A stretch of 64,000 nucleotides of DNA, from assembly GCA_963804955.1 (NCBI GenBank), contig CAWDSQ010000014.1, forward strand, positions 128,001 through 192,000. The letters run 5' to 3'. The DNA comes from an uncultured delta proteobacterium. Lineage in GTDB: Bacteria; Desulfobacterota; WTBG01; CAIYCZ01; CAIRTM01. Below the pieces are notes generated by a model. That model saw only the letters and a program-made list of their open reading frames with translations. It was not told the DNA's origin and ran no database searches. The first letter of the stretch is position 1; each line of letters starts with the position of its first letter. This document shows, one piece after another, positions 21,618 to 49,012 of the stretch. The position numbers and the translations under genes are program-made.

Positions 21618-22076
21618 ACCCTAAACACCAAACTCGCCGCCTTCACGGCATGATACGGAGTTTATTATATCGTCAATATTTTCACAATCTATAAACTTAC
21701 CTTCCGGGGACTTCAAGTTGCAGGGGCAATACGGGAAGCACCTGAGCTGGCACTTTATTGCATGAACCGATTCCGGCAAAAACTTATTCTATGGAAGAAA
21801 AAATTGAAAGATGCGGAGAATTAAAATCAATGTGCCCGGGTTCTTGATGCGGCAATAATAACCGAAAGGAGCAGGGTGTTGCATTAGCTTCACGTCTTTG
21901 CTGTATAAATCTTTTAAATACGCACAGATTCTTACAAAGCTTGACATTGGCGCCTCAATCATAATAAAGTGAAAGCAAAATTATAGCCTGCAATCTACCG
22001 TTTACTGTTGCAGAGATCATTGTCTGGTCAACTCACAGTGTTCGTGTAAGTTCCTCAACAGGCACTATAAAAGGAA

Positions 22077-23132: not shown

Positions 23133-23171
23133 ATGTAAAAATTATGACTATATTTGACCCTTTGGTCTGAT

Positions 23172-24011
23172 ATGCAAAACCTCCTTTCAATTGATTTTGA
23201 GTCATGGTTTCATTTCTTAGGTGATCCATCAGCCCCAAAGCGCGAACAGTGGCATACGCTTGACGCGCGTCTTGAAAAAAATACTGCTGTACTGCTTGAA
23301 GCACTGGATGGTTCATCCGTAACATTTTTTGTTCTTGGATGGGTTGGGGAATACTATCCTGAGATTGTTAAAAAAATATTCCAGGCTGGTCACGAAATAG
23401 CCTGCCATGGGTATTATCATGATTTAATTTTCAAGCTGGGGCCTCAAAAATTCAGGGATGATATTAAAAAAGCAAAAGCGCTGCTTGAGGATATAACAGG
23501 GGAAGCGGTTTTGGGATACAGGGCTCCCGGTTTTTCAATTCGAAAATCCGAGCCATGGGCATTGGAAATTATCTATGAAGAAGGTTTCAAGTATGATTCA
23601 AGCATATTCCCTGCATTGAGGACCATGGGAGGAATTGACGGATTTAACCGGTTCCCTCAAATAATGAAACTGAAGGCCGGCGAATTGATTGAACTGCCGG
23701 TTTCAACGACATTGCTCTTTGATAAGCCGATTGTATTTTGCGGCGGCGGTTTTTTTCGATTTTGTCCTTATTGGTTTATGAAGCGTGAAATAACACAACT
23801 AAACCAAGCCAATATACCTGCTGTCGTTTACCTTCATCCGCAGGATTTTGATCCCGGGCAGCCCAGGATGAAACTCACAAAGGGGCATTATTTCCTGTAT
23901 TATTATGGACTGCATAAAGCCCTCAAGAAGTTTAAAAAACTTTTAAGTGATTTTCAGTGGCAGGGTTTTGCCGCGTATGCAAAATCAAATTTTAGTCAGA
24001 ACTTCAAATAA
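23172..24011 (+). CDS. Polysaccharide deacetylase (PEP-CTERM-locus/DUF3473 type)
   Basis: SIDFESWF, TFFVLGW, GHEIACHGYYH, GYRAPGFS, YDSS, GGGFFR, YLHP. Confidence 0.9.
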   Translation: MQNLLSIDFESWFHFLGDPSAPKREQWHTLDARLEKNTAVLLEALDGSSVTFFVLGWVGEYYPEIVKKIFQAGHEIACHGYYHDLIFKLGPQKFRDDIKKAKALLEDITGEAVLGYRAPGFSIRKSEPWALEIIYEEGFKYDSSIFPALRTMGGIDGFNRFPQIMKLKAGELIELPVSTTLLFDKPIVFCGGGFFRFCPYWFMKREITQLNQANIPAVVYLHPQDFDPGQPRMKLTKGHYFLYYYGLHKALKKFKKLLSDFQWQGFAAYAKSNFSQNFK

Positions 24012-24062
24012 TAAAAAAACAGGAAGCACCAGGAATAACAGTCGGCAGGAAAGTTATTTTAA

Positions 24063-25274
24063 GTGGGGCCTGGATCATTTGATATCTTTATAATTATAAC
24101 TTCAGCCGGTATTGTACAATATTTTTTATTTTTTAAGCACAAGGACCTTTGTTTGTCTAACCATATAAACACAAAAAACAGAACCTGGACATTACGCACT
24201 GCAACAGAGAATGATGCAGACGGCATACTGCAATTAAGAAAAGTGACATTCCCTCATGAGGATTATGAGAAGCAGGAAAGATCATACTGGCGTTGGGAGT
24301 TTATCGATAATTACGCCGGTTCGGCAAATATGTTTGTTGCGGTCGATGGGAACGATATTGTTGGCTACTATGCTGTCATTCCTCAGCGTTTTATCTGTAA
24401 CAACGAAACCCTGCGGGGGGCCATTGTTGTTGATGTTATGACGCATCCGGACTTTCGTTTTCAGGGAATGTTTACAGCTATTGCCCGCTTTGCCTTTCAA
24501 TCCTGTACCGACACAACTGATCTGGAGTTTACAACCGGGTATCCAATCAGACCCGAGGGAATGCCGGGCCATCTCAAGGTCGGTTGGAATATTCGTTTTA
24601 AAATTGGTATTTGGGCACAACCTCTTTCATTACAGGGAATACTGTCCTCCAGGGTTCAAAGCCTGGGCAGGCACCCAGCGCTTTCAAAAACAATTTCCTT
24701 TCTACCGGATTTGTTGTTTCGGCTCTACGCAAACCTGAAATTACGGCACAATGAACTATATAAGGTGGAAAGAACTTCAAGGATTGATTGCCGGCGTTTC
24801 CAGCATTTTTGGCAAAATTGCTCAAGCGCCATCCCCCCAGATTGTATTCTGCAGGAAAGAACCGTAGAATATCTTACGTGGCGTTATGATTCGAATCCCG
24901 GCAGAACATATACATACCATCTAGCCATAGGGGCGGACGATACCATACTGGGATTTATTGTAACAAGGGTTGTAGAATTTTCTAATACAAAAATAATGCT
25001 GCTTGTCGACGCCTGTTGTTCGCAAAAAGACCATAAAAACATTTACAGACTTTTAGCAAAAGATGCTTATGACCTTTCAAGGGATTGCCAGTGCTCTCTT
25101 TCGGCCATGATTGTTTCGCAGCCCAACTTTATGTTCCCGAGCCCATGGAAACTGGGTTTTCTACCAACACCATTTAAATTCAGCTTTATGACAAGACTTC
25201 TAAGGCAGCATTCTATAATTGAACAAAATAATTTATCGTGGCACTTGATGTGGGGAGACACAGATGATGTATAA
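24063..25274 (+). CDS. GNAT-family N-acetyltransferase
   Basis: YWRWEFIDN, DVMTHPDFRFQGMF, YLTWRY, GDTD. Confidence 0.8.
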   Translation: MGPGSFDIFIIITSAGIVQYFLFFKHKDLCLSNHINTKNRTWTLRTATENDADGILQLRKVTFPHEDYEKQERSYWRWEFIDNYAGSANMFVAVDGNDIVGYYAVIPQRFICNNETLRGAIVVDVMTHPDFRFQGMFTAIARFAFQSCTDTTDLEFTTGYPIRPEGMPGHLKVGWNIRFKIGIWAQPLSLQGILSSRVQSLGRHPALSKTISFLPDLLFRLYANLKLRHNELYKVERTSRIDCRRFQHFWQNCSSAIPPDCILQERTVEYLTWRYDSNPGRTYTYHLAIGADDTILGFIVTRVVEFSNTKIMLLVDACCSQKDHKNIYRLLAKDAYDLSRDCQCSLSAMIVSQPNFMFPSPWKLGFLPTPFKFSFMTRLLRQHSIIEQNNLSWHLMWGDTDDV

Positions 25275-25469
25275 ATTATTTTGTTTACTTTGAGCTTGTA
25301 GCCAATTGTAGTGGGCCTGAAAGGAGATGGCAGCCAGTTGTCCGCTTCTGTGCTTTGGCCCGGGCAAAATTATATTTTCCCTGAGCATTGACAGGATTCA
25401 TTTATACTGCTTGTTCTTACACATACACACAAACATATACCGTGGATTTTTAGCTTTTCAACATTTACA

Positions 25470-27386
25470 TTACCCGACTAATTCCAAACATCTGTCTTTT
25501 ATATTCACCTTGTAAACAGCACGGTTCTTTATAAAATCTTTAAGCATAACGCCACCATTTTTAAATAATTTTCCAAATTCCTGTATAAACTGCTCATCAC
25601 AATTATATATTAATACATACTCATAGCCAGCCACAAGTTCATCCATCCACTTATCTGCATTTATTTTTCTTGTCCACTGATCTTTCGCTCCATAAGGAGT
25701 TCCTATGCTCCATGAAAAATTGGGATTCGTAGTATTAGGCCTTAAACTATATCTTAAAATCCAATAGGATAGCCCCCCCGTAAGATCATTTTGTGAAACA
25801 ACATAGACCGTATGTTTTTCTTTACCGACCAAGCCCGTAAATTTATTAGCCGTATCAGTAAAAGGCTGCCTGGTTGCTATGCTATAATCTGTGCTTTTAT
25901 AGAACAATTTTATAATTGAATTAGATTCAACATTTGATTAATAAAAAAGCCAGCAAAAATATCAATCCGTATTTTACACCTGATTCTTTACTGCTATCAC
26001 TGAGAATTTTTAGCGCAGCAAACATTAACATTCCAGCAAAATATATATTGAGATATCTGTTAAATGACGCTAAAGCGACTGCTTCGAGAGGACTGAATTT
26101 AAATAAATATAATACCAGCAATCCAAAAACGTAAATTAGATTACCCAGCAATATTGTTACAATGATAAACTTAGTCTTTTTTTTGTTTTCAGCTGTTTTA
26201 TAAAAATAAAAAAATAAAATAATAAATATTGCAGATGCTGAAAAAAATGTTAATGGTTGAAAAACGGTGTTACTACCTGCCTATGAATTGTATTAATAAA
26301 ATTATCGACGACTCTTGACTTATAAGTAGCATCATTACCCGCAAGGATAGTTATTAATTCACTCATGACAACAGGTTTTGAAAAAGCTTCATATACATTA
26401 TTGCTTTTTATCTCATGAACCCACGAATACTTGGCAAATAAAATAGAAAATAATATAAAAAAAACTACAAATAATTGTTTTAGATTTGCTTTTGAAAACT
26501 TATTTTTAAAAATTTTTGCTAAAGATTTTTTTATAAATAAAACATCTATTAAAACGATAAAAAATATAATTGATGCCAGGTACGCACCAACAGGCTTTAA
26601 TAAAACCAACATAAATGTTGTAAAAAATAAAGCTATAGATGTTAATAAATCATATTCTTTTTTAACAAAAACAGTTGCTAACCCGAAGCCAAACAAAAGC
26701 CCCAATATTGGATCAATAAAAACAATGGTATAATAGTTAGTAAAAAAGATAGCTGGAGAAATAATTATTATTAATATTATTATTAATATTTTTAAAAACT
26801 CATTCCATTTTATTTTTTTTAAAAATGGCAAAAATAAAGATACTGCAACTATTTGATAACTTACAAATAATAACCCTTCATTAAAACTCCCGGCAAGGAC
26901 TTGCCAAAAATATTGAAATAAAGCCATCGCAGGCGGGTATGATTTAAAAGCGCAACCGGAAGCAGGATTAGTTACAAAGTCATTAATGTCGAACATTGCT
27001 TTAATTGAATCTCCCCAGAATGAAAATTCATCCCATGAGATTAAAAGTCTTCCTTTGTGGATTTTGACTAAAGCAACAAAAAAAATTATGAATATTACGA
27101 ACCCCGGGGTGAAGGTGTTTTGACATAACTCTTTCCATGATTTCTTTATAATGACGCTTAAAAATGTATATGCATATAAAAATATTGAAATTAATAAAAT
27201 AAAATAAATTCCTATTTTTAAAATTTCAAAAAGCCCAAATAAATATAATATAAAAACAATACCCATAATAGTTACAGGAATAACTTCTTCAAATCTTTTT
27301 TTAAATACTTGTGAACAAAAAATACTTAATGAACACAAAACCATTATAATTATAAACAATGAAATATTCAAACCATCTATAGACAT
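25470..27386 (-). CDS. Very AT-rich polytopic membrane protein (GT-C/GtrII-like), split into three ORFs
   Basis: WDEFSFWG, SYPP, LLKP and SFNRY motifs; collinear fragments 26250-27386, 25927-26151 and 25470-25907 broken at A/T-rich tracts. Confidence 0.65.
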
Positions 27387-28157
27387 AGTATTTCCTTTTT
27401 AAATATATATTTTTATATGTTTTAAATAATAAAATTATAAAATAAATAAATAAATAAATAACATTATTTATTATAATAAATACAATCCATATTATATTTT
27501 AAAATTTTTGTCAAGTTTGTTTATTCAGCTGTTTATGCTTATTGTTGCTGCGCATAAAGTGTGCTCGTAAAATCAGATCTTTAAATGAATTGCCCTCATT
27601 CTTCGCTGGCTCAACTCTGAAGTTCAACGCCTGCCGGTGGTTTGGTGTAGCGCAAGTTTATCACCGAAGAATACCGCAGTTAGGGTTCTAAATCCAAAAA
27701 ATTTTAACGGTCGGTGATTATGTCGATCTACAAGTCCATTGCCTTTGTTGAAAGGTAACATCCTTCAAATCCTTCCCCTTGGGGAAATACTGCTGCTGAA
27801 ACCCGTTGCTGTTTTGGGTCAGAAACCGCTCCGGGGAATAGCAGGGATGCACGAAGCAACTGGCCGCCTTTAGAGCATATTTCTAAATAGTATAGCCATA
27901 TGCGCACAGGTAAGCCTTTGGTAAGAGTAGCCAGTGCGATTCGAGCAATTGGCATTCCATCATTGCCGGTTTCTCTTGCGAAAATAGAGCACGGGCAAAC
28001 GAATCAAAAGCTTACCATAAGGGCGTATGACTACAACAAAATGAAAAATGCTCTGGTTCTGATGCGATAGCTGCATGCCCCGCAAACTTTTTGCCGTTGC
28101 CGTATGCGTTTGGATGAAGTACAGCCTGCTGCTGCGCGGATAACCAGGAAGAATGAT

Positions 28158-30624: not shown

Positions 30625-33334
30625 ATGGCACATCCCGACTCATTTCATGCCCGCGCCGCACTTGCAACAGCGGGCGACACTGTGGCGTATTACCGCCTCG
30701 CAGCCCTTGAAGAACAGGGCTTTGCCGACCTCTCACGCATGCCTTTTTCAATAAAGATTCTTCTGGAAGGCCTGCTCCGCGGTGAAGACGGCTCCACCAT
30801 AACTCGCGATGATATTCTGCGGCTTGCCCGGTACAATCCCGCCGGCCCCGCTCCCGTTGAAATCGCCTTCAGGCCGGGCCGGGTTCTGCTGCAGGATTTC
30901 ACGGGCGTGCCCTGCGTGGTTGACCTTGCAGCCATGCGCAGCGCCATGGCGCGTCTTGGAGGCGACCCGCGGCGCATCAACCCGCGCATCCCGGTCGACC
31001 TTGTCGTTGACCACAGCGTGCAGATGGACGCAAGCGGCTTCCCGCAGGCTCTTGAACTCAATACGGCCCGCGAGTTTGAGCGCAACCGCGAGCGCTACGA
31101 ATTTTTCCGCTGGGGCCAGACCGCTTTTGACAATTTCCGGGTCATCCCGCCCTCGCAGGGCATTTGCCACCAGGTAAACCTTGAATATCTTGCCTGCGTT
31201 GTACAGCGCCGCATGATTGACGGCCAGGCTGTCGCTTTCCCCGATACGCTGGTCGGCACGGACTCCCACACCACCATGATAAACGGCCTTGGGCATTGCG
31301 GGCTGGGGCGTTGGCGGCATCGAGGCAGAGGCGGTCATGCTGGGCGAGCCCCTGTATATGATTGCGCCGCCGGTTGTGGGCATGCGCCTTACCGGCCGGC
31401 TGAAGGAGGGCGTGACGGCAACCGACCTTGTGCTCACCATCACGGAGCTGCTGCGCAGCCGCGGCGTGGTAGAGAAATTTGTCGAATTCTTCGGGCCGGG
31501 CCTTGACGCCATGAGCGTCACCGACAGGGCAACGGTTGCCAATATGGCCCCTGAATACGGCGCCACCATGGGCTTTTTTCCAGTTGACGGACAGACCATT
31601 TCCTACCTGCGCAGCACCGGACGGCCGGACGGGCTTGTTGACCTTGTAGAGCGCTACTGCAAAGCACAGGGCCTTTTCAGGCTGCCCGGCATGCCGGAGC
31701 CCGTGTTTCAGGAAACCCTGGAGCTTGACATGGCAACAGTTGCTCCCTGCCTTGCAGGGCCCAGCAGGCCGCAGGACCGCATTGCGCTCTCCGGAATGAA
31801 AAGCGCATGGAAGGCTTCGCTTTCAGCCCCGAAGGACAAGCGGGGCTACGGCCTTGACAGCCAGGCACGGGCTGCACAAGCCGAGGCTTCACTTCCCGAC
31901 GGCAGCACCGCCATAATCACCCACGGTGCTGTGGTCATCGCCTCCATCACCAGCTGCACCAATACCAGCAACCCTGCCGTGATGCTTGCAGCCGGGCTGC
32001 TGGCAAAAAAAGCCGTCGAAGCCGGACTGAGCGCAAAGCCCTGGGTCAAGACCAGCCTTGCCCCAGGCTCGGTCGTGGTGACGCAGTATCTTAAAGAGTC
32101 AGGGCTTCTGCCCTATCTTGAAAAGCTCGGATTTCATGTGGCGGGCTATGGCTGCGCCACCTGCATCGGCAACAGCGGCCCCATTGCCGAAGGGCTGGAA
32201 AAAGCAATCCATGACAATAAACTTGTGGCTGCCTGCGTAGTGTCCGGCAACCGCAATTTTGAAGGCCGCGTGCACCCCAGCGTCAGGGCGGCATTTCTGG
32301 CATCCCCGCCGCTGGTGATTGCCTATGCCCTTGCCGGCACCGTTGACATCGACCTTGCGCGCGATCCTCTGGGCATTAATGCCGAAGGCCGGCAGGTCTA
32401 CTTCAAAGATATCTGGCCGGCAGACGATGAAATCGCAGGGCTTCTTCACCATGCCCTGAACGCCGGCATATACAAAAAAACCTACGGGGAAATTGAGCAG
32501 GCAAACAGCCTCTGGAACAGCCTTGCAGGCTGTGAGGGCGAGCTGTTTGCCTGGCAGCCCTCCAGCACCTATATTCAGGAGCCGCCTTATTTTATCGGCA
32601 TGGCACAAGCTCCTGCACCCATCACGGCCATTACAGGTGCCCGCGTTCTTGCCCTGCTCGGCCACAGCATCACGACAGACCATATAAGCCCGGCAGGCTC
32701 TATCGCAAAAACAAGCCCTGCGGCCGGCTATCTCATGGAACATGGCGTACAGCCCGTTGACTTCAATTCCTATGGCAGCCGCCGGGGCAATCATCATGTC
32801 ATGGTACGCGGCACGCTGGCCAATATCCGGCTGAAAAACGAGCTTGCCGCAGGCGCCGAAGGCGGCCTGACGGCACATCTGCCGGAAGGCCGGATCATGA
32901 GCATTTTCGAGGCTTCCGCGCAGTATATCGCCGCCGGCATACCGACCATCATTATCGCGGGCCGAGACTACGGCATGGGCAGCAGCCGCGACTGGGCTGC
33001 CAAGGGCACGCAGCTGCTGGGCGTGCGGGCGGTCATCGCCGAATCATATGAGCGCATCCACCGCAGCAATCTTGTGGGCATGGGCGTGCTGCCCCTGCAG
33101 TTTCTGCCGGGCGAAAACGCCCGCAGCCTTGGTCTCACGGGCCGTGAAACCTATACTCTGACTCTATCCGAGACCCTCCCGCCTGGAGAAAAAATAACGG
33201 TGGAAGCGCGCAGCGACAATGGGGAGGTGAAATGCTTCAGCGTACTCAGCCGCCTTGACACCCCCATCGAAATCGACTACTACCGCCACGGCGGCATACT
33301 GCCCCGCGTTCTGAGGTCATTTATCAAAGCTTAA
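30625..33334 (+). CDS. acnA: Aconitate hydratase 1 (frameshift near 31290)
   Basis: [58 protein letters not shown]. Confidence 0.95.
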
Positions 33335-33490
33335 GGCCGTTTGCATGGGTTCTACTAATACTGTTCGGGGTGGGCGGGCAGGCATATCGATCATCCGGCT
33401 TTTGTGACTGCCCATGTCCTGCCGGGAGATGCATCGCGTTTTCAGCTGCTGAAGCGGTTTCTGAAAAAAGACTTTATACATCCAATCCTC

Positions 33491-36400
33491 TCAGGTACAT
33501 TTCAGGCAATTGATGCCCGCAAGCGGAATGCTCCGGTCAACAGGGCCGCAGAGAAAGCTGTGCAGCAGAACCTGCTGCTGCCCCAGGCAGAACTGTTCCC
33601 GCAGCCCCTCAAAACGCATGGCTCCTATGGGGCATACGCCCATGCCGGATTCGGCCTGATGGTCCATGAGCACCTGGCCGATACAGCCCGCCTCGATCAT
33701 GGCAAGCTGGGGCCCCTGGCTGCCAAAAAGCGGCTCCAGCCTGCTTAGATCAGCTATGCAGAAAATGCTGAATCCTGCTTCGGCGAAATACGAGCGGTTG
33801 CGGGGGAAATGAGCCTGGCGCAGCTCAGCTGCGCCAGCAGCGCTTATCCGGCGCAGCGTGTGGACCGCCTGATCATACAGATAGATGACCTTCCGGCACC
33901 TGTTCGACCGCCCCGGGCTGAATATGTACATACACCTGTACGGCATAAGCGCCTGAGGCCGACTCGTACAGGGCCGCATACCCGCCGTCCTGAGGCACAA
34001 GCCGCAGCAGGGCCATGAATTTTGAAAAAGCGGCAAATGCTGCGGGCCGTCGGGCAAAGCTTCGCTGCGTTGAGCGCAGCATATACTGATTATGCAGAAA
34101 GCCGGCCGGCTGCAGCGATAGCGTTTTCTGCGGCCGGAGAAATTTCCGGAGATGCGGCTGCGAGAGATGCAGCTCTTCATGCTGCTGCGGCGTTAAAACA
34201 TTGAGGCAGTCAAGAGCGCCGACAGCGACAGCCCGCAGGCAGGCCCAGTCCGGGGCAGGCCCTGTAAAATGATCGGTAAGATTGCCCTGAAAAATATCGG
34301 CAGGGCTGCCGGCGCTTTCGGCACTGCTGTCCGGCAGGCCGCCGGCCAGGCAGGCCATGAAAAGATGGGTTTCCTCAAGCTCAAAAAGATGCCGCACGCT
34401 GCCGAAATCCGTCCCGGCAAGCGGGCACAGCCCCAGTCCTGCAGCGTCCTGCCTGCTCATGAGCAGCTGCTGCATATAGCCTGCATCAAGCAGAGCGAGA
34501 GCCGGGCTCAGGCAGTCATAAACCGGTCGAAGCGCCGCCAGCTGCGCAATGAAAAATATGCAGAATCCGGCTTTTTCAAATACCGGCCGGTTGGCAGGAT
34601 GCATAATCTCCTGCGGTATGGCACCTTCGCCAACTGCCATGAGCTGATGCGTTGCGGGATGATAGTAATAAATTCCCGCCGGCACAGCCTCGACGCGGCC
34701 CGCTTTAACATAGACATAGGTCTGCACGGCATTGAGCCCGCCGGCAGAGGGGTAAAGATATTTCGGCTCGCCGCTCACGGTTTCCTGCTTGAGAAGCCCC
34801 AGCAGCCGGCTCAGGTTGCGCAGCGGCACAGGGTCTGCTGCAAAGCTGCGGCAGCAGGCACGGCTTGAGTATTCCTGCGGGGCAAAGGATACCGGCTCAA
34901 GGGCAATGACTGCCGCTCCGGACGGAGCTGCAGTCGGCCGGGTCGAACTATGTCCGGAAGCCGGCAGCACAGCTTCCACGGTCAAGGGGTTTACCGCGGG
35001 CAGCATGTCTTGCAGATACTGCGCCAGACTGCGCAGGGTCGTATGATCCAAAAAAACCTCAACCGGCACATCAATGCCGTGCTGCTCATGCAGCAGCTCG
35101 GCTATTTCGATAAGGTTAAGCGAGGTGACGCCCAGATCGAAAAAGTCCGCGTCCGGCGCTATTGAGGCGATGCGGAGCACTGATGTAAAAGCAGAGGCAA
35201 GAAAGTTCTGCTCCGCCGGTACTGATGCGACGGCAGTCTGAGCCTGCAGCACAGCAGCTGCTGAGCGTGGGGGGGCGCCGGGGGAGGAGGAGTCCCGGCG
35301 CCCACAGTTATCCGGCTTTCGGCGAATATCTGCCGCACCCGCGCTGTAACCTCGTCAAGCATGGCACTGTCGGTAAACGCCTCGACAGGCAGCACAATCT
35401 GTATTTTTCTGAGCATATCCTGAACAGCCGCAGCTTTGGCCGCCGGCGCGGCGCAACAGGCTACCGCAGCCTGTTGCGGGACGCAGGGCTCCTGAACCGG
35501 CAGCTGCCCGGCAGGGGGTGCGACCGTGGAGACGGGCAGCTGCACCCCTATAGCTGCTGCAAGGGCGGCAATGCTGGAATGGTCCAGAAAGGTTTCAACC
35601 GTCACATCCAGGCCGTGCTCTTCGTGCAGCCGCTCGGCAATCTGTATGAGGTTGAGCGACGTGACACCCAGATCAAAGAAATCGACTGTCGGCGCGATCA
35701 CGGTCACACCGAGAACTTCCCTGAAATACGCGCTCAGGACGGCAATCAGATCAACCTGCGAAGCATGCTGCGCTTCCGGCGGGGCCTGCTCCTGCGCCGC
35801 TGCCGCCTCGTTTATGGGCCAGGGCAGCTTCTTGCGGTCAAACTTGCCGTTTGCGGTAACCGGCAGATATTCAAGCGAGCACAAATATATTCGGCACCAT
35901 ATAGTCCGGCAGAAAGCGGCCGGCAAAGCTGCGCAAGTCTTTTGACGGCGGCAGTGGAGTGTCGGCCGCTGTCAAATACGCGACCAGCTTCTGATCGCCG
36001 GCAGCGCCCTGCTGCACCGCTACCACAGCCTCTTTTATTGCGTCGTGGCGCCGCAGCACCTGCTCGATTTCGCCGAGCTCGATGCGGTAGCCCCGCACCT
36101 TGACCTGAAAATCGCTGCGGCCGAGAAACTCCATGGTTCCGTCGGCAAAAAACCGCGCAAGATCGCCCGTGCGGTACATGCGTTTGTCAGGGCCCTTTTG
36201 GAAAGGGTCGGCGACAAAGCTGCGGCCGGTCAGCTCCGGCTCATTCAAATAGCCCATGCTCAGGCACTCTCCTGCAATATAGAGATTGCCGGTAACCCCC
36301 GGCGGGCAGACCTGCAAGTGCTCATCCAGAATATAGTAGCGGCTGTTCTGTATGGGCCTTCCGTAGGGAATGCTGCGCCACTGCGGCTCGACGCGGTTGA

Positions 36401-39050
36401 CGGGAAAGTAATTGGACCACACCGTTGCCTCGGTCGCTCCGCCAAGGCTCATCACCTGTGCTGCAGGAAAAATCTCCCGTAGATCATCGGGCAGGCTTAC
36501 CGGAATCCAGTCGCCGCTTAAAAATATCTGCCGCAGCTTAGTATTGGCAACAGGCCTCGGCTGCGCCTTCAGCGCCGGCACCAGCAGCTGCAGGGCTGCG
36601 GGCGCTGAATCCCAGAAAGTAATCTCCTGCGAGCAGAGGGCGCGGGCCAGCCGGGAGGCATCCCTGCGGAGGGCATCGCTTGCAATATAAATCCTGCCGC
36701 CGCAGCCAAGCATGCCGAAAATATCAAAAACCGACAGATCAAACCCGAGCGATGTGATAAACAGCACGCTGTCGTCAGGGCCGAATCCGCAGCTGCGGCA
36801 GCACCATTCAAACAGATTGGCAAACGGCTTATGCGCCACCATGACCCCTTTGGGAGCGCCCGTGCTGCCGGAAGTATAAATAACATAGGCAAGATCATCG
36901 GGGCGGTTCACGCGCGGCGGATTGCCGGTTTTTTGCGCGGCAATGACGCTGCTGGCAGCACCGTCGATACTGACAGTCTTCACGCCGGCATGCAGGCTGA
37001 GCCGGGCATGCCTCTCCTGCGACACGATCACCTTGACCCCTGCGCTGCGCACAATCGCCTGAATACGCTCTATCGGGTAGGAGGGCTCAAGAGGCACATA
37101 GGCGCCGCCGGCTTTAAGAATCGCAAGCAGTGCGGCAATCATATCATGAGAGCGGTCAAGACAAATGCCAACCAGAGAGCCGCTGCCGACGCCCTGCTGC
37201 CTGAGATGCCAGGCCAGAGCATTTGCGCGCCTGTTGAGCTCGCCATAAGAAAGGCTCGTGTCTTCATAAACAATTGCCGTACTTTGGGGCCGAACCTCCG
37301 CCTGGCGCTCAAACAGCTCATGCATGCAGACATCCCCGGCAAAGGGGGCAGCGGTCGCATTCCACGCTTCTATAATCCTGCGCTTTTCCGCTTCCGAGGC
37401 AAGCGGCAGCCGGTCAATCGGCTGATGCATGCTGCCTGCGGCGGCATGCAAAAAAACTGTCAGCTGATTTTTAAGGCTTTCGCCATAGGCCGCATCAACC
37501 ATAGCGGTATTAATGCGCAGCCGGCAGGAGCCGTCATCGGCAATCAGCAGCTCAAGGGCTGCACCGCCGGCAGGCGGCAGGCTTGAAAAATCCCGCAGAT
37601 GCCGGACCCGCACAGGCATGCTCCGGCCCGCCTGCTCCCGCAAATCGGGCTGGCGGGCGATCAGGTCGCGGGGAAAGGTGCCCGAGCGTTCAATGGCTGA
37701 GAGTTTTTCAACAGCAGCCCGGCAGCATTCCTCAAGCGGCCTGCGGGCGTCAACCGTCAGGCGCAGGGGTACACAGTCGGCAAAAAAACCTTCCAGGCCT
37801 TTAATGCTTTCCGTAAGCTTGGCCTGCCCGAAGCCCACATGAATCTCGGTTGCTCCCGAATGCCTGGCAAGAAAGGCGAAAAAGAAGGCGGCCATAAGCT
37901 GCCAGGGCTTTGCCGCGGGCACAAGCAGCAAAGCCGCCCGCAGCAGCTCCGGCTGCAGCTGCAAAGAAAAAAGCTCCTCCCCCGTGGGCTCGGCGCCCCG
38001 GCCATGCAGGCGCATGTCAGGCAGCGTCAGCGGCTGCAGGCCTCGAAGCTGTTCATGCCAGAACGGTTCATGACGGCAGGTAAAGTTATACAGCTCTGTC
38101 AGGCTATCGGCAAGCCCCGCATCGGGCTCGGTAAACCGGTAGCCGGGCCTGATGCCGCAGTCACGCTCCAGCTGCACGGCATCACAGGCGCAGCCTTCGA
38201 TTGTCGCAAGGCCGGAAAGGCGCATGTCGTGGCTGGCCGTTGCAACCGTGATGCCGTCCGCATCTGCCGCCAGCACTGTGCCGGGCGCAGCAGGTGAACT
38301 GGTGGCAAGCGCACTCAGCTTCTTTACAATGAAAAAATTGCCCCGCGCACAGATCTTCGGCACCCCGAGGGCGTTCGGGTAGGGGCCGAAATCAAGGCTG
38401 CGGACAAAAGCGTCAATTTCCTCTGCGGTGCGGTTCCAGGGAATCATGCAGCCGCGCACAGGCCGCCGGTAGCGGGCGAAATATGTGCGCTGGGAGAGAT
38501 TTTGCGGCATTTCGGCTGCGCCGCCCGCTGCCAGCTCATCGACCAGCTCCCCGAACGCTTCAAGGGCTTTCTGATAGCAGCGCATATTCAAGCTCAGCGC
38601 TGTATCTGCTGGCGACACGCTGAGCGTCTTCTGCTTGAGCACGCCTCCGGCATCTATTTTCGGAGCCATCACATGCCAGGTTATGCCATGGGTCTGCTCG
38701 CGGTTCATGATGGCCCAGGAGGTGGCATGTATGCCGCCATAGCGCGGCAGGGGCGCGTCGTGAAAATTGATGGCCATGCGGCGCGGAAGCGCCAGAACTT
38801 CGGGGGGCAGCACGGCATTGTTGACGATGCTGAACAGGTAGTCGCAGGGTCTGGCGCGCATAAAACCGTTTAAAGCCCCGGTAGGCTCATCCCAGGGTAT
38901 GCACCTGCTCTCTGCCCAGGCCCGTATGTCGGGGTTGGGGGATAGTATGCCGAGAATGCTATGCCCCCGCTCAAGCAGCTTTTCGCAGCACTGCAGGGTA
39001 AGGGTTGTTTCTCCTATCACATAGCAGCTGAAAGTACTTTTTGGGGTCAT
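33491..39050 (-). CDS. Single-module NRPS: formyltransferase, degenerate C, A (Cys-type), PCP, PCP, oxidase, oxidase; frameshifts near 35880, 35270 and 33886
   Basis: INFHDAPLPRYGG/GITWH/IDAG (F); YTSGSTGAPKG, FDLSV, SGDWIP, SLGGATE, YRTGD, NGK (A); two FFDLGVTSL; YPSAGG and YESASG SagB/nitroreductase-type domains. Confidence 0.88.
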
Positions 39051-39068
39051 TGCATACTCATACAGAGG

Positions 39069-40064
39069 TCAGTGAATGTCAGCAGGCCCGAGACCTATAC
39101 AATCAAGGGCTCGTGCAATATCGTTCCGGGTTATCGGTGTTTCTATAATTTCAAGAGCGCGCTGCCGTGTCATTTCGCCGCGGCGCACCAGCATGCTTAT
39201 TTCCGCCTCATGCTGTGAATAGCCGAACCACTCCAGCGCGAGCTTCTGGCACACGAAATTAAACAGACAGTTTGTCGAGCCTGCGGGCCAGCTGATCTCG
39301 GGCAGGGCATATCCCATATCATGGGTGATGGTCGCAAGTATGTCCGACTCTTCATAGTCCAGATAGTGAAACGGCGACAGGAGCGTCAAAGAGCCGAAGC
39401 GGCGGTGAAAATACAGGGTCAGGCTGGCAAACATCTCGGCGACGAGAGAAAATTCGGGCTTGTCTTTGACCGCCTCCAGCAATGCCGCATCAGAGGCGCG
39501 ATATATCCAGAACAGCTCCGTGCCCTTTAAAAATTCCTGCCCCTTGGTATGGCCGCTGATGAGCAGCTTTATGCCATGCTGCAGCGCAAACTGACGGATA
39601 TAATAGTCGATCAGAGCATTGCAAATGCGGCAGAAATACACCCTGCTGCCCGTTTTCAACAAATGCCGGAACAGATCCTTAATAAGGCGCGGCTTGAACG
39701 TCAGCAGATCAACACCAAGGCTGTCTGTTGCGTTTTTAACATTGCGGTACATGGCCTCAACGCAGAATCCGTTGTCGATAAAAACGGCAAGGGGCTTCAG
39801 GCCGAGCTGCTTCACAGCGATATGCAGCGACATGGTGCTGTCCTTGCCGCCGGACAGGGCGACAAGGCAATCATACGGCCCCGTGCTCGCGCCGCGCAGC
39901 GCATCGACTTTTTCCAAAAGCTCGGGCAGGCCTGCTGCCGCTGCCGGCGATTGCCCGGCCCCTGCATCGCGATGTTTTGCGCACAAATTGCACAGACCGC
40001 TTGCATCAAGCTCTATATGGCCCTCAACTTCCGGCATGATGCAGTGCGTGCATCTGTTGGGCAT
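39069..40064 (-). CDS. PP-loop (AANH) ATP pyrophosphatase, OzmP/CongE-like or N-acetyl-sugar-amidotransferase-like
   Basis: N-terminal CxxC...CxxC, DCLVALSGGKDS, FCRICN, STNC; ends 18 bp before the NRPS ATG. Confidence 0.8.
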   Translation of the reverse strand: MPNRCTHCIMPEVEGHIELDASGLCNLCAKHRDAGAGQSPAAAAGLPELLEKVDALRGASTGPYDCLVALSGGKDSTMSLHIAVKQLGLKPLAVFIDNGFCVEAMYRNVKNATDSLGVDLLTFKPRLIKDLFRHLLKTGSRVYFCRICNALIDYYIRQFALQHGIKLLISGHTKGQEFLKGTELFWIYRASDAALLEAVKDKPEFSLVAEMFASLTLYFHRRFGSLTLLSPFHYLDYEESDILATITHDMGYALPEISWPAGSTNCLFNFVCQKLALEWFGYSQHEAEISMLVRRGEMTRQRALEIIETPITRNDIARALDCIGLGPADIH

Positions 40065-40191: not shown

Positions 40192-42132
40192 TTAGTTTAC
40201 ACTGAGGCCTATCACAGGCACACAAGCCTTCAGCAGGTATTTTGCCGCGCTCCCGGCTGCAGGATACCTGCCGCAGAACTCACCCATCTGGTCGCCATAG
40301 GTATAATACAGGTTGATGAACTTTTTCCCCACGCTGCTTTTTGCCAGCACCCGGTCGCGGAACAGGCGCAGGGTGTTAAGATCCTCATCATGCTTGCCCA
40401 GCATTCTCTTTGCGATGCAGGAGCCCTGGCGCGTGCCGGTGCGGGCGGTATTGCCCCGGAACATGGTCCAGGCGGCATCCTCATCATCGGGGGCATGCAG
40501 GCAGTAGACATTATTGTCCTGGCTGCCGACATACACGAGACCATGGGCCACGGCAGGCGAGGAAAAAATCGCGCCGCCTGTTTTATAATGCCAGATCAAG
40601 GTGCCCATTTCCACATCAAGGCAGTAGACATTGCCGTCAAAGCTGCCGATATAGAGATAGTCACTGGTAGTGGCAGGAGAGGAATGGACATCGAAACCGG
40701 TAGCAAACTCCCAGATTTTCTCTCCGGTCACCGTGTCCAGGCAGTACACCTTGCCGTCAAGGCTGGCAAAATACACAAAGCCTTTTGAAACAGCCGCCGA
40801 ATTATACACTATGTCGCCCGTGAGGAAATCCCATTGTTTAATGCCCGTTTCAGCGTCGATGCAGTAAAATTTGCCGTCCTTGCTGCCGACATACACATAC
40901 CCGTCCACAACCGCCGGCGACGGGGGAATATCACCCTCGGTTTGAAAATGCCAAAGCTTATCCCCTGTTTTCGCATCCAGGCAGTATAGCTTGTAATCAA
41001 CCCCGCCTACATACACGCGGCCGTCGGCAACGGCCGGGGTTGAGAAAACGTCCTGATCGGTCTGAAAATCCCACTGCTTGATGCCGGTTTCGGCGTCAAC
41101 GCAATAGACTTTGTCGTCAAAGCTCCCCACATAGACAAGGCCGTCGGCAATGGCCGGCGAGGACTGAATATTGTCGCCGGTCTCAAACTCCCAGACCTTC
41201 TCGCCCGTGGCGGCGTTCAGGCGATACAGCTTATGGTCGGCGCTGCCCACATACAGGGCATCGCCCGCTATCAGGGGGCTTGAAAGCACGCTATTGCCTG
41301 TCTGATAGCCCCAGACTTTCTCGCCCGTCTTTCTGTTCAGGCAATACACATAATTATCTGCACTGCCGATATACACATAATCGCCTTCAATGGCCGGCGA
41401 TGAGGTAATGATGCCGCCAGTATTAAAGGTCCATGCCAGACGCTCAGGGTCGCCTGCTCCTCTGATTTCCAAAGTACAGAGTGTTGTGATCGAGCCCGTG
41501 GCTGTCGTGACCGTACATTGCTGGTCCGAGGCATTGTCGGCCACCGAAATAATGGCCCTGATCTTCGTGGCATTATCGACCGTTATGCCGGCAACAGTAA
41601 TATCCGTGCAGCCGAAGGCAACTGTGGTGGTATTGTCAAATGAAGTTTCCTTACCGTTGATAATAAGCTCCACCAGGTTTCACCTCCGGTTACATAGGTG
41701 GGCTCCACACCGCCGCACCGGGGCCCGGACACGCGCTTCGTGCCGCTTTCAATATTATAATCGGTAAACAAGGTGCCGCTTACAAAAGACTCCCCCATCA
41801 TCATCCATCTCCAGGATATGCTTGTCCATTTCTTCGCCCAGCCTGGTCCCTTCGGTATAGGCGAAAGATCCGGGTAAAAAGCTAACCTGAATGATCTGAC
41901 AGAACACAGTAGGGCCGCCCGCGGTCGGCGTGGTGGTTCCCTGGGCCTGGCACAGAATATTGCCGGATGTGCCGGTCACGATATTGGTTATAACCCACAC
42001 ATAGGTCGACCCGTCGGTTTTGGTCATGTCCCAGGTGCCCAGCCACACGTCACAGTCAGTTTCAGCGGCCGAAGCTCCGCTGCCGGCCCACAGCAGGCAC
42101 AGCGCCATCATTAGCAGTTGTAGTTTTTTCAT
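40192..42132 (-). CDS. Secreted PQQ-like/BamB-type beta-propeller protein with an Ig-like domain and a CFI-box-CTERM-like tail (frameshifted near 41680-41790)
   Basis: Signal peptide; about eight SSPA.....VYVGS.D..VYCLD..TG...W.F repeats; LRLFRDRVL...GKKFINLYY. Confidence 0.82.
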
Positions 42133-44077: not shown

Positions 44078-47000
44078 CTACTCTCCGGGAAAACCTTCCG
44101 GACAGGTATCCGCGGATTTCTTCAAAGTTACGTTGCCTTTAACCTCCTGCTCTTTAACTATGAGCTGGCCCTCCCATTGATCCGTGGTGAGATTGTACTT
44201 CATGTCCGTCATGGTGAGATGGGCCGTTATCGCGCCAAGGGTCACCAGAATGGTCCCGTTCACCGAGCTTACCTCATCCACGGTAATATTGCTTGCGGCC
44301 GTAGCATCAGGGTCACTGGCAGCATCGGCGGCATCAGCAATTTTGCCGTTCATATGCTCATTGGTAGCCTCGATATCAATGCGCGCGGTACCGGTGACGA
44401 CAGTGCCCGACTGGTCAGCGCAAACCTTGAGAGCTGCGGCGATAAAGCCGAAATCGATAACGCCTTCATAATACCCGTCAAATTCGGCTTCGCCGAAGGT
44501 CGGGCAGTTTGCCGCATTTTTGTGATAGTAGTCTTCAACTTGCGCATAATGCCGCACGGCCATGCTGAAGCAGTACAGCGCCCTGGCAAGCCTGCCGCTG
44601 TCCCCGGCCTGCTTGCCCTTTTCAAAAGCGCTGTCGCCCAGTGACAGATCGCGGTTAATGCGTTTCTGATACTCATCGCAAATGCTATCGGCCATGACTG
44701 CTGCTTCAGCCTGCGCGACCTGCACTTCCCACAGTGCCGACTGATAGAGCATCTCTTCGGATGCTGCCAGCGCCCGTGTTGCAGCGCCTCTGCCGGCCTT
44801 GGCAATGGCCAGGGCCGAAAGCCTCAGCTGCCCGTCAAGATCGGTCTGCTCAAGAGCCTTTTTCATCATTCTTTTAGCTCTTCTATAGTGCCGCTTTTGC
44901 GCGCCGCTTGACGAGGCGATGGCCGAGGTGAGACCGGTGTCCATAGTCGGGGCGCATTTTTCATACGACAGGAGCCCGCGCTGGGTCGTAAGGGCAAGGG
45001 AAACGCCGGCAATTTCAAGAGTGCCTGCCGTCATCGTGCCCTTCAGGCCGCTGCCCGACTTTTTAAGATTGATTTCGCCGGTGCCGCCGGCATACACAAA
45101 CGTGCCCTTCACAAAACTTTCATTGTCGGCCGTCGAGGCGGTGACCGTGCCGTCAAGAACCGTAGCGCCATAGACGGTAAGCGTGCCGGTCACATTGTCA
45201 TGGGCCTGATAGAGATCGGCAACAATGCCGATGGTGCTGTTATCGGCTGCATCCAGACCGGTGCCGTACCAGATGCCGCTTGCCTGAGTTGCCGGCTTCT
45301 TCGGCACGGCAACTTTAAACGTGTATAAACCGCCGACACCGCTTGAAACATAGGCAATACCCTGGTCCGCTGCATAGGTGATTCTCAGGGGATCGATCAC
45401 GCTGAAGGACTCGTTGTCAAACTCCTGCGGACTGTCGGGCACCGCAATATCAAACAGGCGCACGGCCCCGGCCGTATCGGCCACGAGCAGATACCCGTCA
45501 AAGGCCTCGACAGCTCTCATCATGCCGGTTTTATGGCGCACGGTGATGGGATCAATGAAAGATGCATTGTCATAGGTTGGCAGATACAGGGGGTCGAAAT
45601 GTACCATATGCAGCACGTCGCTTGCGGGCAGATACATCCAGGTATCCCAGACCGCTATGTCAAGGACATTGCCCAGATCATAGCCCAGGGTATAGCTGGC
45701 GGCGATCTTCTGGGGAAAGCCGGGGTCTTGTATGTCAAGGGCCGTAAACCCTTTAAGCCCGTCTGCCACCATACTATAGCTTTCGCCCCATACAACCGGG
45801 GCATAGCAGATGCCGGCGGTGTTATAGCTGCCGAGCAGCTCAGGGTTGGCGGTATCAGAAACATCCACGATCGCCAGGCCTGCGGTCTGGCAGGCGACAA
45901 AGGCAAGATTCCCCTGCACCTGAACCGTGTAGGGCTGACCGGAGAGGGCTACTGACCCGAGAATGACCGGCGCCAGCGGGTCTGCGACATCCACGATTTC
46001 CAGCAGCCCGCCTTCCTCCCCTTCATGATTGGTCTGGGCGACATAGACGGTTGAGCCGGAAACGGCAAGGCCGTTGGCATAGCCCGACAGGGTCTTCTGC
46101 ACGACCTGCAGGGGCTGCAGCGGATTAGTCATGTCAAGAATCGCAAGGCCTTTGGTTCCCACGGCGGCATAGGCAAAATCGCCCGCGCCCTTGCAGTCGA
46201 CAACCCGGCCCATGGAGAGGATTTCGCCGACCTGCTGTATGGCATTAGAGCGGGTGTCAAAAATCCGTATGCCGTAATTTGAATTGGCAAGCGCCACATA
46301 GTTGCCGATTGTCGAAATGCCCAGGCTGTGCTGTCCGAGCAGAAAAGCCTGTACCTGTATCGGGTTTGCAGGATCGGTCACATCAATCTTGTAAAAATCC
46401 GCGAACTCGGTGCACAGATAGACATACCCGTCCTTTGCCTGCACAACCCCGATGACACCCTGATAATTATTATTCAGCGGCTCGCCGACAAGGGTAATAT
46501 TGTCAAAATCGGCTATGTTAAGGACTGCAAGGCCGGTGCCGCCGGCTGCCACATAGAGATAATCGCCGTCACGCGCTACGCCATAAGAATTGGCCCAGTG
46601 ATTGTGATAGAATCGAAATAATAAGCCACCGGCTCCAGCGTTTTGGTGGTGTTATCGATGCCGTCGAAAATGTACAAGCCGTCAGCCTCGCAGCTGAAAA
46701 AAAGCGTATTGCCGTCGATATAGGCGTCATAGGCATGGTGTTCGGGGTTCACAAAATCCGTAAATGACTGCACGATATTCGGGGATGAGGGGGTGGTCAC
46801 ATCAAGAACAAATAAGCCTGAATAATCGGCAACATACACATAGTTGCCATTGACCGCCACACCGAAGGTCTGGCCGATGGCGTCGGCCTTGTCGAAGTTC
46901 GTTACCGAAATGATCGCCGGCTTAGCCGGGTCGGCAACATTAACCGCCGCAAGGCCGCCGTAGGAGCAGGAGATATAGAGGATATCACCGCTTTGAGCTA

Positions 47001-47268
47001 TGCGGCGTGCTATGCCCGGAAGGGCAAGCGTGCCGATCTCAACAGGCGCGCTCATAGTGGAAATATCAGAAACAAAAAGTCTGCTGCCTGTGAGACTGAA
47101 CAGCAGAGGGTTTCTGTACTGAGAAGTTCCATCCTCGTCTATCAAGCCATACCGGGACGAGCCCCCAAGGCTATACTGAAAATCAACGGTCTGGGCAAAT
47201 GCCCCTGCCGTCATGCTGACTGCAAAAAGCAGAGCGAAGATGGTATAGTAAATGTTTTTTCTTTGCAT
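44078..47268 (-). CDS. Large secreted LVIVD-repeat beta-propeller protein (frameshift near 46570-46620)
   Basis: Signal peptide; repeated YAYVA...GL.IVDVSD.ANP units in two collinear ORFs. Confidence 0.8.
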
Positions 47269-47517
47269 AACATGCCCTCCTTGTGAACTGTTTTCTCTGA
47301 CTGTTTCTGTATGCTCAGGCTGAAGGGGAGCTCAAATCGACATACGATACGGCAGCACCCCACCGGCGCACACAGCCCTGTAAAAAAAGTTCAAAGCCCT
47401 CTGCATCTGCCGCGGCAGAAAGCTTTAATCACAGAAAAAATGTTTAGCTGAAGCGTCATGCTTCCGGCTCAACCGGACACTTTTTCCAATGGGCAATAAT
47501 TCGATAAATATTTTAAA

Positions 47518-47755: not shown

Positions 47756-49012
47756 TTAATAACCGTGCTTCTGCAGGTAATCAAGGGTGAACATAGTCTC
47801 CGGAAGATCTGCGCCGAACTTCAGTTCGGTGGTGCCGACCGTAGCAGTGAATGCGCTGAATATCGACGGTCTGGGTGCCGTTGAAATGAGGAACGACAAC
47901 TGCCATTATGCCCCTTGCCGACAAAGCCCAGCTGATCAATCCACTTCCAGAGCTTGCCCGAGCGGTCATAGCGGTCGGAGTACAGCATCTGCCAGGTTTC
48001 GGGATCAAGATACCAGACCATTTTGCTGTACAGAAAGTTGGGGTCTTTGCTGGTGGCCTCGACAACATGCATTTTCACGCGCTCGCGCTGCGTTCCGTCA
48101 AACAGGCAGTCGCCCGGCGTATGCACGAGCTTTTTGGTGTCGGTGTGGCGGCCCATGAGCATGTCTTTCTGGCCGAGATACTTATAGGTATTGACCTGCA
48201 CCGGGCCGTCCCATCCCATATTATCGAAGGCGCAGTAGTCGGCGCCGCCCTGGGCGTCCTGACGCTCCGAGGTCGAGCGGCGGCGTACGCGGCGGATGGA
48301 AGGCATCCAGAACCAGGAGTCATAGGCCTTGAGGGTATCCTTGTAGTGGATTTCCATGATGCGCATATTGCGGGTTTCCGGCGGCTGCAGCTGCAGCATG
48401 CTGAATGCACGCCATATCTGCTTGGGATTTTTCGTCAAACTCGGGCACCGGCGGCGTATCGGTGCGGCCGGAAAAAAAGCACAGGCTGTTTTTGATTTCG
48501 GAATTCATGTCATACTTCAGGCGACCGTCGACGATCCAGGCATTATCATGGTTCTTATAGGCGTCGCCGAATGCTGCGGGTGCGGAAATTATGGGCCATT
48601 TCTGTGGCATCCTTGGTGTCGGGAAACGGCACGCCGGAGACATAGCCCAAGAATCTCGCCGCTTGGGTCCGAGCTTTGCTCTGACCATAATACTTTTTGG
48701 TCATTTCAATATTGCCCGGCGTGGGGGAACCGGTTTGATAGGGAACGATTTCAAACCAGCTGTCGCCCCATTTGCCGGCATCCTTCATGGTGTTGTAAAA
48801 GCTTTCCGGCAGAAAGTCCTTCACCTCGTCAACATTGGCGCTGGTAATTTTCTTGCCGACCCACTTGGCTTCCCAGGCCTGAAGTTTTTTCAGCTCATCG
48901 CCCTGATAGCAGGCACAGGGTACTGCAGCTCTTTGGCCGAAGCTGTTGATGCAGCCATCAGCGCACAGGCGACTGCTCCCAGAACACACAGTGCGGAAAT
49001 TTTAAGTTTCAT
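47756..49012 (-). CDS. DUF1329-family periplasmic protein (LolA-like fold), multiple frameshifts
   Basis: ITSANVDEVKDFLP, GVPFP, WMPSIRRVRR, WYLDPETW..YDRSGKLWK; collinear fragments. Confidence 0.8.

Follow-up and report, generated by a model that had tools for sequence, protein, structure and literature searches.

We analyzed a 64,000-nucleotide stretch of DNA (the window) from an uncultured delta proteobacterium (assembly GCA_963804955.1, contig CAWDSQ010000014.1, positions 128,001 to 192,000, forward strand). Two adjacent genes on its minus strand (window positions 33491..40064), a PP-loop ATPase and a nonribosomal peptide synthetase (NRPS), may encode a third route to thiazoles that would be independent of both heterocyclization (Cy) domains and YcaO proteins. 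In the most far-reaching form of this reading, to which we assign a probability of roughly 45%, a carrier-directed PP-loop enzyme with an amidotransferase-like fold and an Fe-S-type cysteine triad would close the ring of N-formyl-cysteine, and a fused, pseudodimeric flavin oxidase would aromatize it, so that uncultured Thermodesulfobacteriota would produce a 2-unsubstituted thiazole-4-carboxylate. For members of this ATPase clade placed before formylation-adenylation(Gly)-carrier-ketosynthase assembly lines in Pelosinus and other anaerobic Firmicutes, it predicts 5-substituted oxazoles or, with sulfur insertion, thiazoles as products. Our evidence consists of the domain content, conservation, adjacency, and nearest relatives of the two genes, on the basis of which we predict the substrate, each of the chemical steps, and product release. 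Judged on these grounds, the chances are about even that the gene pair is a self-contained two-gene azole-forming unit.

Gene pair and domain organization

The stop codon of the ATPase gene lies 18 bases ahead of the NRPS start codon (ATG at 39050). The NRPS is spread over four minus-strand frames (35871-39050, 35159-35926, 33873-35252, and 33491-34180), the breaks between which are considered below. Pfam and NCBIfam profiles gave the domain order Formyl_trans_N/C, partial Condensation, AMP-binding and AMP-binding_C, two PP-binding domains, and two Nitroreductase/SagB domains (Table 1). We refer to these as the formylation (F), condensation (C), adenylation (A), and peptidyl carrier protein (PCP) domains and the nitroreductase halves NTR1 and NTR2.

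Table 1. Features of the ATPase-NRPS unit, in window coordinates
Feature	Position	Strand	Basis
PP-loop (AANH) ATPase, 331 amino acids	39069..40064	-	Open reading frame; profile, fold, and alignment matches
F domain; N-x-H and D catalytic motifs kept	38166..39050	-	Pfam; alignments to orthologs and solved formyltransferases
C-terminal lobe of condensation-type domain, N-lobe absent	37356..38075	-	Condensation profile from ~191-193
A domain, code D-L-F-D-F-S-L-V-W-K; spans frame break 1	35830..37313	-	Profiles, alignments
Carrier domain PCP1	35549..35737	-	PP-binding, 60.3 bits
Carrier domain PCP2; frame break 2 just upstream	35013..35201	-	Pfam PP-binding
First SagB-type nitroreductase half, NTR1	34344..34865	-	Pfam, NCBIfam, ortholog alignment
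Second nitroreductase half, NTR2, BmdC-like; spans frame break 3 at ~33888	33545..34097	-	Profiles, PDB match, model

The genome that holds the window (G000) was compared with 40 relatives, among them a member of the same genus (G004) with an intact NRPS ortholog, whose gene pair lies at 8691-15309 of locus L021, and all 41 genomes were searched with the ATPase. Some match was found in 20 of them and a strong one (57 to 100% identity) in 11 (G000, G001, G002, G003, G004, G005, G009, G011, G013, G018, and G020). The NRPS lies directly beside the ATPase on the same contig in every one of these 11 genomes, including G001, where the contig ends after the first 34 NRPS residues. Because the two genes are neighbors in all strong-match genomes, the unit is more than a chance arrangement. 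The same Pfam domain order was recovered from all five orthologs scanned, with two or three carrier domains, and the closest records are, by title, uncultured Thermodesulfobacteriota or delta-proteobacterial metagenome-assembled genomes (MAGs).

The ATPase and NRPS alone were conserved in all eight loci compared. In five of the eight, the unit adjoins a gene for a 275-amino-acid protein that contains an acyltransferase domain of the 2-oxoacid-dehydrogenase (E2) type, and in G004 this E2-like acyltransferase and a PapA-like condensation protein come after the NRPS. The corresponding genes of the window's genome are found at the start of contig 1 (145-972 and 1107-2402, both on the minus strand; locus L093), adjoining open reading frames (ORFs) that resemble glycosyltransferases by eye; their distance from the NRPS reflects either a rearrangement or an assembly break. 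No genes for diaminopropionate synthesis or sulfur mobilization were seen as conserved neighbors in the loci of six relatives.

F domain and absence of known cyclodehydratases

The F domain aligns to sugar and tRNA formyltransferases and, more weakly, to the F domain of LgrA, and all six orthologs retain the N-x-H and Asp motifs needed for catalysis. About 30 residues separate its end from the partial condensation domain, which matches only positions 193 to 347 of the 456-position profile. The match begins at ~191-193 in the window and in four orthologs; the fifth ortholog scanned had no match. The N-lobe, which would bear HHxxxDG or, in a Cy domain, DxxxxD, was absent by Pfam from the window NRPS and from the orthologs scanned. 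An intact Cy domain between the F and A domains was therefore rejected, as only a C-terminal lobe is present and its PDB matches are not Cy specific. Identification of the lobe as a remnant of a Cy domain was likewise unsupported, the PDB search having given weak, generic C-domain matches (PvdL, 1e-4; Txo2). No match to YcaO (PF02624) was found across the whole assembly, which is 87% complete.

These results agree with much of an earlier reading of this DNA (the original prediction). It had described a PP-loop ATPase with an SGGKDS motif and three CxxC motifs 18 bp before the NRPS, and an NRPS composed of F, degenerate C, A, two PCP, and two SagB-type oxidase domains; both descriptions hold, the first by sequence and coordinates and the second by the Pfam and NCBIfam profiles. 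Its statements that neither a Cy domain nor a YcaO is recognizable were borne out, its hand-read A-domain code was reproduced (HMMER alignments to LgrA, BmdB, and PchE; MAFFT), and the conserved ATPase-NRPS co-occurrence that it had named as a check is present.

Oxidase halves

On the SagB profile TIGR03605 (cut-off, 78.4 bits), the intact G004 didomain scored 132.8 bits in two stretches, above the cut-off, and the broken oxidase pieces of the window scored 68.8 and 29.9 bits. The best solved sequence relative of NTR2 was BmdC (E = 1e-23), the bacillamide oxidase, which acts on a carrier-bound thiazoline according to the BmdC paper. That text assigns FMN (flavin mononucleotide) binding to Arg145, Arg146, Ser147, Arg149, and Asn236 of one protomer, with further contacts from the backbone of residues 182-186 of the other, and gives Tyr260 as the likely base. 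For indigoidine synthetase (IndC), the paper proposes a fused oxidase (Ox) pseudodimer.

The residues that were assigned to FMN binding and the active site in BmdC are distributed between NTR1 and NTR2 in a complementary manner. NTR2 has R-x-T-x-R and the Asn in all six orthologs, a degenerate SAGG stretch, and the Tyr in two of six; NTR1 has an invariant YLYPSAGGL stretch and the Tyr in six of six and lacks the Arg/Asn set for the FMN phosphate. An AlphaFold model of the didomain (pLDDT, 79.5; pTM, 0.86) aligned over 472 columns with 3eo7, a tandem nitroreductase in a single chain, ahead of BmdC, McbC, and ThcOx. From alignment and model together, we infer that NTR1 and NTR2 form an intramolecular pseudodimer, probably with one composite FMN/active site.

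PP-loop ATPase

The ATPase carries SGGKDS at residues 71-76 and CxxC motifs at 5-8, 25-28, and 145-148, with an N-terminal CxxC...CxxC ribbon. SGGKDS, C25, C28, C145, C148, and C266 are invariant in 18 homologs (42 to 91% identity). The predicted structure (pLDDT, 89.4) best matched the Legionella amidotransferase 8wex (E = 4.9e-14; TM, 0.65), followed by TtuA, NcsA, LarE, and YcfA (TM, about 0.36 to 0.40). All fold matches were PP-loop enzymes, and the protein belongs to the adenine nucleotide alpha-hydrolase (PP-loop) superfamily. The best profile match was to the WbuX N-acetyl sugar amidotransferase family (TIGR03573), at 146.9 bits against a curated cut-off of 203.2 bits; three relatives of the ATPase scored 143, 174.4, and 118.6 bits, all below this cut-off as well. 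The Protein Atlas returned only auto-named amidotransferase and PAPS-reductase clusters, which we treat as a lead rather than as evidence.

The cysteines set the protein apart from 8wex, which has no Cys at the positions of C145 and C148. In an hhalign comparison (probability, 74%), these two were placed on the CxxC of the TtcA-like protein of the same genome. A role for C266 as the third ligand and the binding of an Fe-S cluster are predicted from spacing only. Such a cluster is known in CtaC, the Fe-S-dependent thioamide synthetase of closthioamide, which acts only on carrier-bound substrates and whose corresponding residues are D77/S78, C154/C157, and C284 (PMC6772006). The PP-loop-to-Cys-to-Cys spacing of the window ATPase is nearly the same as that of CtaC. 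In addition, a homolog from Pelosinus propionicus (P0066; WP_090933233.1), 45% identical to the window ATPase, is listed in Table S5 of that study among the top 100 CtaC homologues and is typed there as NRPS/PKS (polyketide synthase) (PMC6772006).

Since the invariant triad resembles the Fe-S ligands of CtaC and TtcA and a relative appears in the CtaC homologue list, we keep the alternative that the ATPase is a CtaC-type Fe-S thioamide synthetase. It would replace the formamide oxygen with sulfur on the carrier to give N-thioformyl-aminoacyl-S-PCP, and the end product would be a thioformamide or a ring containing the inserted sulfur. One such ring would be a thiazol-5-one, which would arise when the thioester is attacked, with the oxidase halves acting on the ring; the resulting self-release would account for the missing thioesterase. 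The placing of TtuA, NcsA, LarE, and YcfA after 8wex in the fold search also speaks for this alternative. However, by both fold and profile the ATPase comes closest to amidotransferases rather than to sulfur inserters, the A domain and oxidase have their nearest relatives in a thiazoline/thiazole module, and no conserved sulfur-mobilizing gene stands beside the unit. Moreover, the thioformamide of a cysteine-type substrate is expected to collapse to the same thiazoline that direct ring closure would give. We therefore regard a thioamide synthetase as unlikely here, if still a serious candidate.

Distribution and phylogeny of the ATPase family

A pattern scan with one genome per species, using patterns that CtaC does not match, returned 61 loci, 53 of which carry an ATPase with at least 39% identity. 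An F-domain NRPS of the window type is directly downstream in nine, all of them Thermodesulfobacteriota or delta-proteobacterial MAGs, and the oxidase halves are visible in the seven of these with sufficiently long contigs. In five loci from Pelosinus and other Bacillota (L039, L050, L051, L056, and L081), the ATPase is followed by an F-domain NRPS with the code DILQLGMIW (5/5, one partial), which we take to be a glycine code. The three long NRPSs of this group that were scanned continue after the A domain with a PCP, a ketosynthase (KS), a dehydratase, and a ketoreductase. An A domain of this Gly type followed by a KS was seen in L039, L050, L051, and L081 and not in the window NRPS. By architecture, these Pelosinus and Bacillota loci resemble OzmO/OzmP/OzmQ-like starters in anaerobic Firmicutes.

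A class-II aminoacyl-tRNA-synthetase-like ligase is beside the ATPase in a further 35 loci, mostly with a small carrier protein and in seven cases with a stand-alone formyltransferase. In this cassette, the ligase has ~393 amino acids and the carrier ~78; all 35 loci fall among L037-L079 (e.g., L068, 8769-11237; L045, 8787-11247; L063; and L067). Its hosts are gut and rumen Firmicutes and Actinomycetota (Slackia, Gordonibacter, and a record titled Clostridium botulinum). Two of the 53 loci are contig-end fragments, and two more fit no group.

A quick maximum-likelihood tree of 47 ATPase rows was computed with Shimodaira-Hasegawa approximate likelihood ratio test (SH-aLRT) support. Left out were L055 (internal stop), L031, L035, L038, L058, and L080 (partial or broken), L066, L067, and L072 (near-copies of retained rows), and L083 and L085-L089 (short, weak, or no match). 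All seven window-type ATPases formed one clade (support, 99), and these seven together with all five Gly/KS-type ATPases fell inside a 15-row clade, also with a support of 99, the two types being placed as sister groups. Because this clade joins the two types, the nearest functional context of the ATPase appears to be a formyl-aminoacyl starter module.

Adenylation domain and its substrate

The A-domain code was read from HMMER alignments to LgrA, BmdB, 6lta, and PchE and from a MAFFT alignment. The pocket residues are D235, L236, F239, D278, F299, S301, L322, V330, W331, and K517, in what we take to be GrsA position numbering. Their first nine, DLFDFSLVW, are identical in all seven orthologs, the A domains of which share 57 to 90% identity. 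When the 136-residue pocket region was compared with the PDB, the best matches were BmdB (E = 2.7e-29), 6lta (1.5e-25), and PchE (9e-25), the next being at 1e-11 once a truncated BmdB construct (7ly5; 2.6e-17) was set aside. The A domains of BmdB, 6lta, and PchE all belong to heterocyclization modules. The codes obtained from the alignments were DLYNLSLIW for BmdB and DLFNLSLIW for PchE; the window code is identical to that of PchE at 7 of 10 positions and to that of BmdB at 6 of 10. With these matches to the PchE code and to heterocyclization-module pockets, cysteine is our best guess for the substrate.

The same chemistry could also operate with another nucleophile, the A domain loading serine, which would lead to oxazole-4-carbonyl-PCP, or 2,3-diaminopropionate, which would lead to an imidazoline and then an imidazole through amidine formation of the sort catalyzed by its amidotransferase relatives. 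An invariant Asp stands at position 278, where the Cys codes of BmdB and PchE have Asn, and the second-best pocket match, 6lta, belongs to a Cy module whose substrate is a serine derivative. In addition, the best structural relative of the ATPase turns an amide into an amidine. These points are set against the 7 of 10 code positions shared with the PchE Cys code and the thiazoline substrate of BmdC, the best oxidase relative; diaminopropionate-synthesis genes, too, are not conserved near the unit. On balance, loading of serine or diaminopropionate seems rather improbable.

Proposed pathway

We propose the following sequence for the N-formyl-cysteine reading. The A domain would select a small amino acid that bears a beta-heteroatom, L-cysteine being the most likely, and load it onto the two carriers in tandem, and the F domain would N-formylate the carrier-bound amino acid with formyl-tetrahydrofolate as the donor. 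The stand-alone PP-loop ATPase would then adenylate the formamide oxygen of the carrier-bound substrate. Attack by the side-chain thiol, either directly or after a transient exchange of O for S, would expel AMP (or H2S) and yield a 2-unsubstituted thiazoline-4-carbonyl-S-PCP, which the nitroreductase pseudodimer would dehydrogenate to thiazole-4-carbonyl-S-PCP. Release might occur by hydrolysis or through a trans-acting acyltransferase. E2-type acyltransferases shuttle acyl groups between thiol carriers, which makes the E2-like acyltransferase a candidate for the latter.

The central step would draw on chemistry that the relatives of the ATPase share, in which an amide oxygen is adenylated and a nucleophile then attacks. 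Sugar amidotransferases use ammonia as the nucleophile, CtaC uses sulfide, and the OzmP proposal has an enol oxygen in this role. Since the formamide is the only amide on the carrier protein here, a cysteine substrate would bring its own thiol, and an oxidase of the azoline type is fused to the NRPS, conversion of formyl-Cys through thiazoline to thiazole-4-carbonyl-S-PCP would be the most economical outcome, and we give it an even chance. The predicted product should be fairly robust to the exact mechanism: a thioformamide intermediate beside a neighboring thiol should lead to the same thiazoline with loss of H2S. A non-thiol substrate would have a different outcome.

Several observations weigh against this pathway. 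The A-domain code departs from Cys codes at N278D, L299F, and I330V, and its pocket has a second acidic residue, which could be compatible with Ser, Thr, or a (short) cationic side chain; as other side chains could thus be accommodated, the code falls short of proving cysteine. The ATPase misses the cut-off of its best profile family, and its invariant CxxC...C triad is not obviously needed by a pure cyclodehydratase. It is likened to OzmP and CongE by gene arrangement and to CtaC by spacing and a homologue list, and the conglobatin and phthoxazolin papers themselves present cyclodehydration by OzmP/CongE as a proposal. The NRPS has no thioesterase or reductase domain, and the E2-like acyltransferase is on a different contig in the window's genome. 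Finally, frame break 1 (~35875) lies outside the contig cover described below, which leaves some room for a real pseudogene in the window strain.

The original prediction had put forward the formyl-Cys route to thiazole, with a CtaC/YcfA-type thioamide synthetase as its alternative. That route is supported in part: the architecture, the invariant code, the lack of Cy and YcaO, the adjacency, the BmdB and BmdC relatives, and the sister ATPase clade all favor it, and both cysteine as the substrate and the individual chemical steps are predictions. The alternative remains live on account of the triad, the CtaC-like spacing, and the 45%-identical relative in the CtaC list.

Frame breaks in the NRPS

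A tblastn search with the intact G004 ortholog located three breaks within 5.6 kb of the NRPS, near 35875-35880 (break 1), 35282-35291 (break 2), and 33888-33991 (break 3). Break 2 sits in C5 and C7 runs, which place it at 35260-35291, and break 3 adjoins CCCGGGG. In six relatives, the NRPS is a single open frame of 1,792 to 1,939 amino acids. We examined the breaks in contigs from four public runs over positions 33450-36050; these derive from related strains that are 88 to 99% alike. One base is absent from the related-strain contigs at 33888 (3/3 runs with cover), and one base is extra at 35260/35262 (2/2 runs with cover). No public run held at least half of the stretch's sampled words (top share, 0.16), and no listed piece spans the stretch.

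Other genes of the window are broken in a similar manner. The aconitase gene is split (30625-31506 and 31289-33334, plus strand), as are at least two more genes relative to their intact orthologs in G004 (44078-47331 and 47824-49001, minus strand), which suggests a high indel error rate across the contig. Given these split genes and the frame-restoring bases in the related-strain contigs, the NRPS breaks are most likely assembly indels.

If the breaks were instead real, the NRPS of the window genome would be a decaying pseudogene with no product here, whatever its intact orthologs do. The occurrence of three breaks in 5.6 kb, the lack of related-strain cover at break 1, and the location of the downstream partner genes of the same-genus relative on another contig in the window genome would fit such decay. 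Nevertheless, two of the three breaks are one-base differences from related-strain contigs, the aconitase and other genes are broken likewise, and all four NRPS pieces keep 62 to 80% identity to the G004 ortholog with no stop inside any frame; we consider a pseudogene very unlikely.

Comparison with known systems

The OzmO/OzmP/OzmQ arrangement is described in the conglobatin and phthoxazolin papers. As set out there, OzmO/OzmP, CongA/CongE, and PtxE/PtxD (oxazolomycin, conglobatin, and phthoxazolin) each combine an F-A(Gly)-PCP starter with an SGGKDS ATP pyrophosphatase that is proposed to cyclodehydrate the formamide; Itm15 is termed a cyclodehydratase in one review. The window unit is similar by arrangement, having a stand-alone SGGKDS PP-loop protein like OzmP, CongE, and PtxD beside an NRPS whose first domain is an F domain. 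In contrast to OzmO/OzmP, its A code is Cys-like and not Gly-like, there is no ketosynthase, and two oxidase halves are fused to the NRPS. With these three features, the ring would close on the side chain and would need oxidation, giving a 4-carboxy-thiazole as opposed to a 5-substituted oxazole. We class the unit as a variant of OzmO/OzmP that keeps the partner pair, probably uses another amino acid, lacks a polyketide extension, and carries an oxidase in addition.

Among solved structures, the A pocket is closest to BmdB (Cy-A-PCP) and NTR2 to BmdC, both of them bacillamide enzymes, and by sequence, the pocket and oxidase appear to be drawn from bacillamide-type thiazole modules. Unlike BmdB, the window NRPS lacks a Cy domain and would receive its N-acyl group as a formyl from the F domain, and whereas BmdC is a separate homodimer, the window oxidase is predicted to be a fused tandem pseudodimer. 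The Ox pseudodimer of IndC and 3eo7 likewise have two nitroreductase halves in one chain that are predicted to pair; in IndC, however, the pair is inserted in the A domain and has another substrate, while that of the window is C-terminal, after the carriers.

The ATPase itself shares with CtaC a PP-loop, a three-cysteine layout (compared by spacing), a thiotemplated context, and an occurrence in anaerobes. It differs in that the only amide available to it is a formamide, oxidase domains are present, and its overall fold is nearer to 8wex. The WbuX/WbpG sugar amidotransferases (TIGR03573; 8wex) are its best profile and fold match and activate an amide by adenylation; in contrast to them, the window ATPase scores below the family cut-off, has C145/C148, and is always beside an NRPS, not glycan genes.

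To our knowledge, azole rings in natural products are currently ascribed to two enzyme types, the Cy domains of NRPSs and the YcaO cyclodehydratases. A third type, the OzmP-like PP-loop enzymes, has been put forward only for oxazoles derived from formyl-glycine in polyketides. If our reading is true, it would extend the OzmP logic to a side-chain thiol and couple it to a SagB-type oxidase within two genes; as there are just two, the proposal is directly testable in vitro. The putative OzmP-type cyclodehydratases, CtaC, and sugar amidotransferases would then be one amide-activating family whose members differ in the nucleophile. The unit also points to small sulfur heterocycles in anaerobes, which are so far unexplored. 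In the literature searched, we found nothing relevant on this architecture or its product, though work on OzmP or Itm15 may exist in subscription journals.

Other features of the window and related genomes

A PQQ-like beta-propeller protein is encoded directly upstream of the ATPase in the window (40192-41673, minus strand) and in G018 (locus L027, 5398-7331, minus strand). In Pfam, this protein comes closest to PF13570, the beta-propeller of a beta-alanine-activating enzyme, and we note it as a candidate neighbor only. A second PP-loop paralog (30 to 32% identical) occurs beside a stand-alone adenylating enzyme of ~530 amino acids in G011 (C49), G007 (C96), and G005 (C62), and the two may constitute another carrier-linked, amide-modifying pair. 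Elsewhere in the window, positions 18000-28000 form an island of low guanine-plus-cytosine content (0.30 to 0.43, compared with 0.52 to 0.60 around it). The N termini of its ORFs resemble family-2 glycosyltransferases by eye, and the island may be an acquired polysaccharide gene set.

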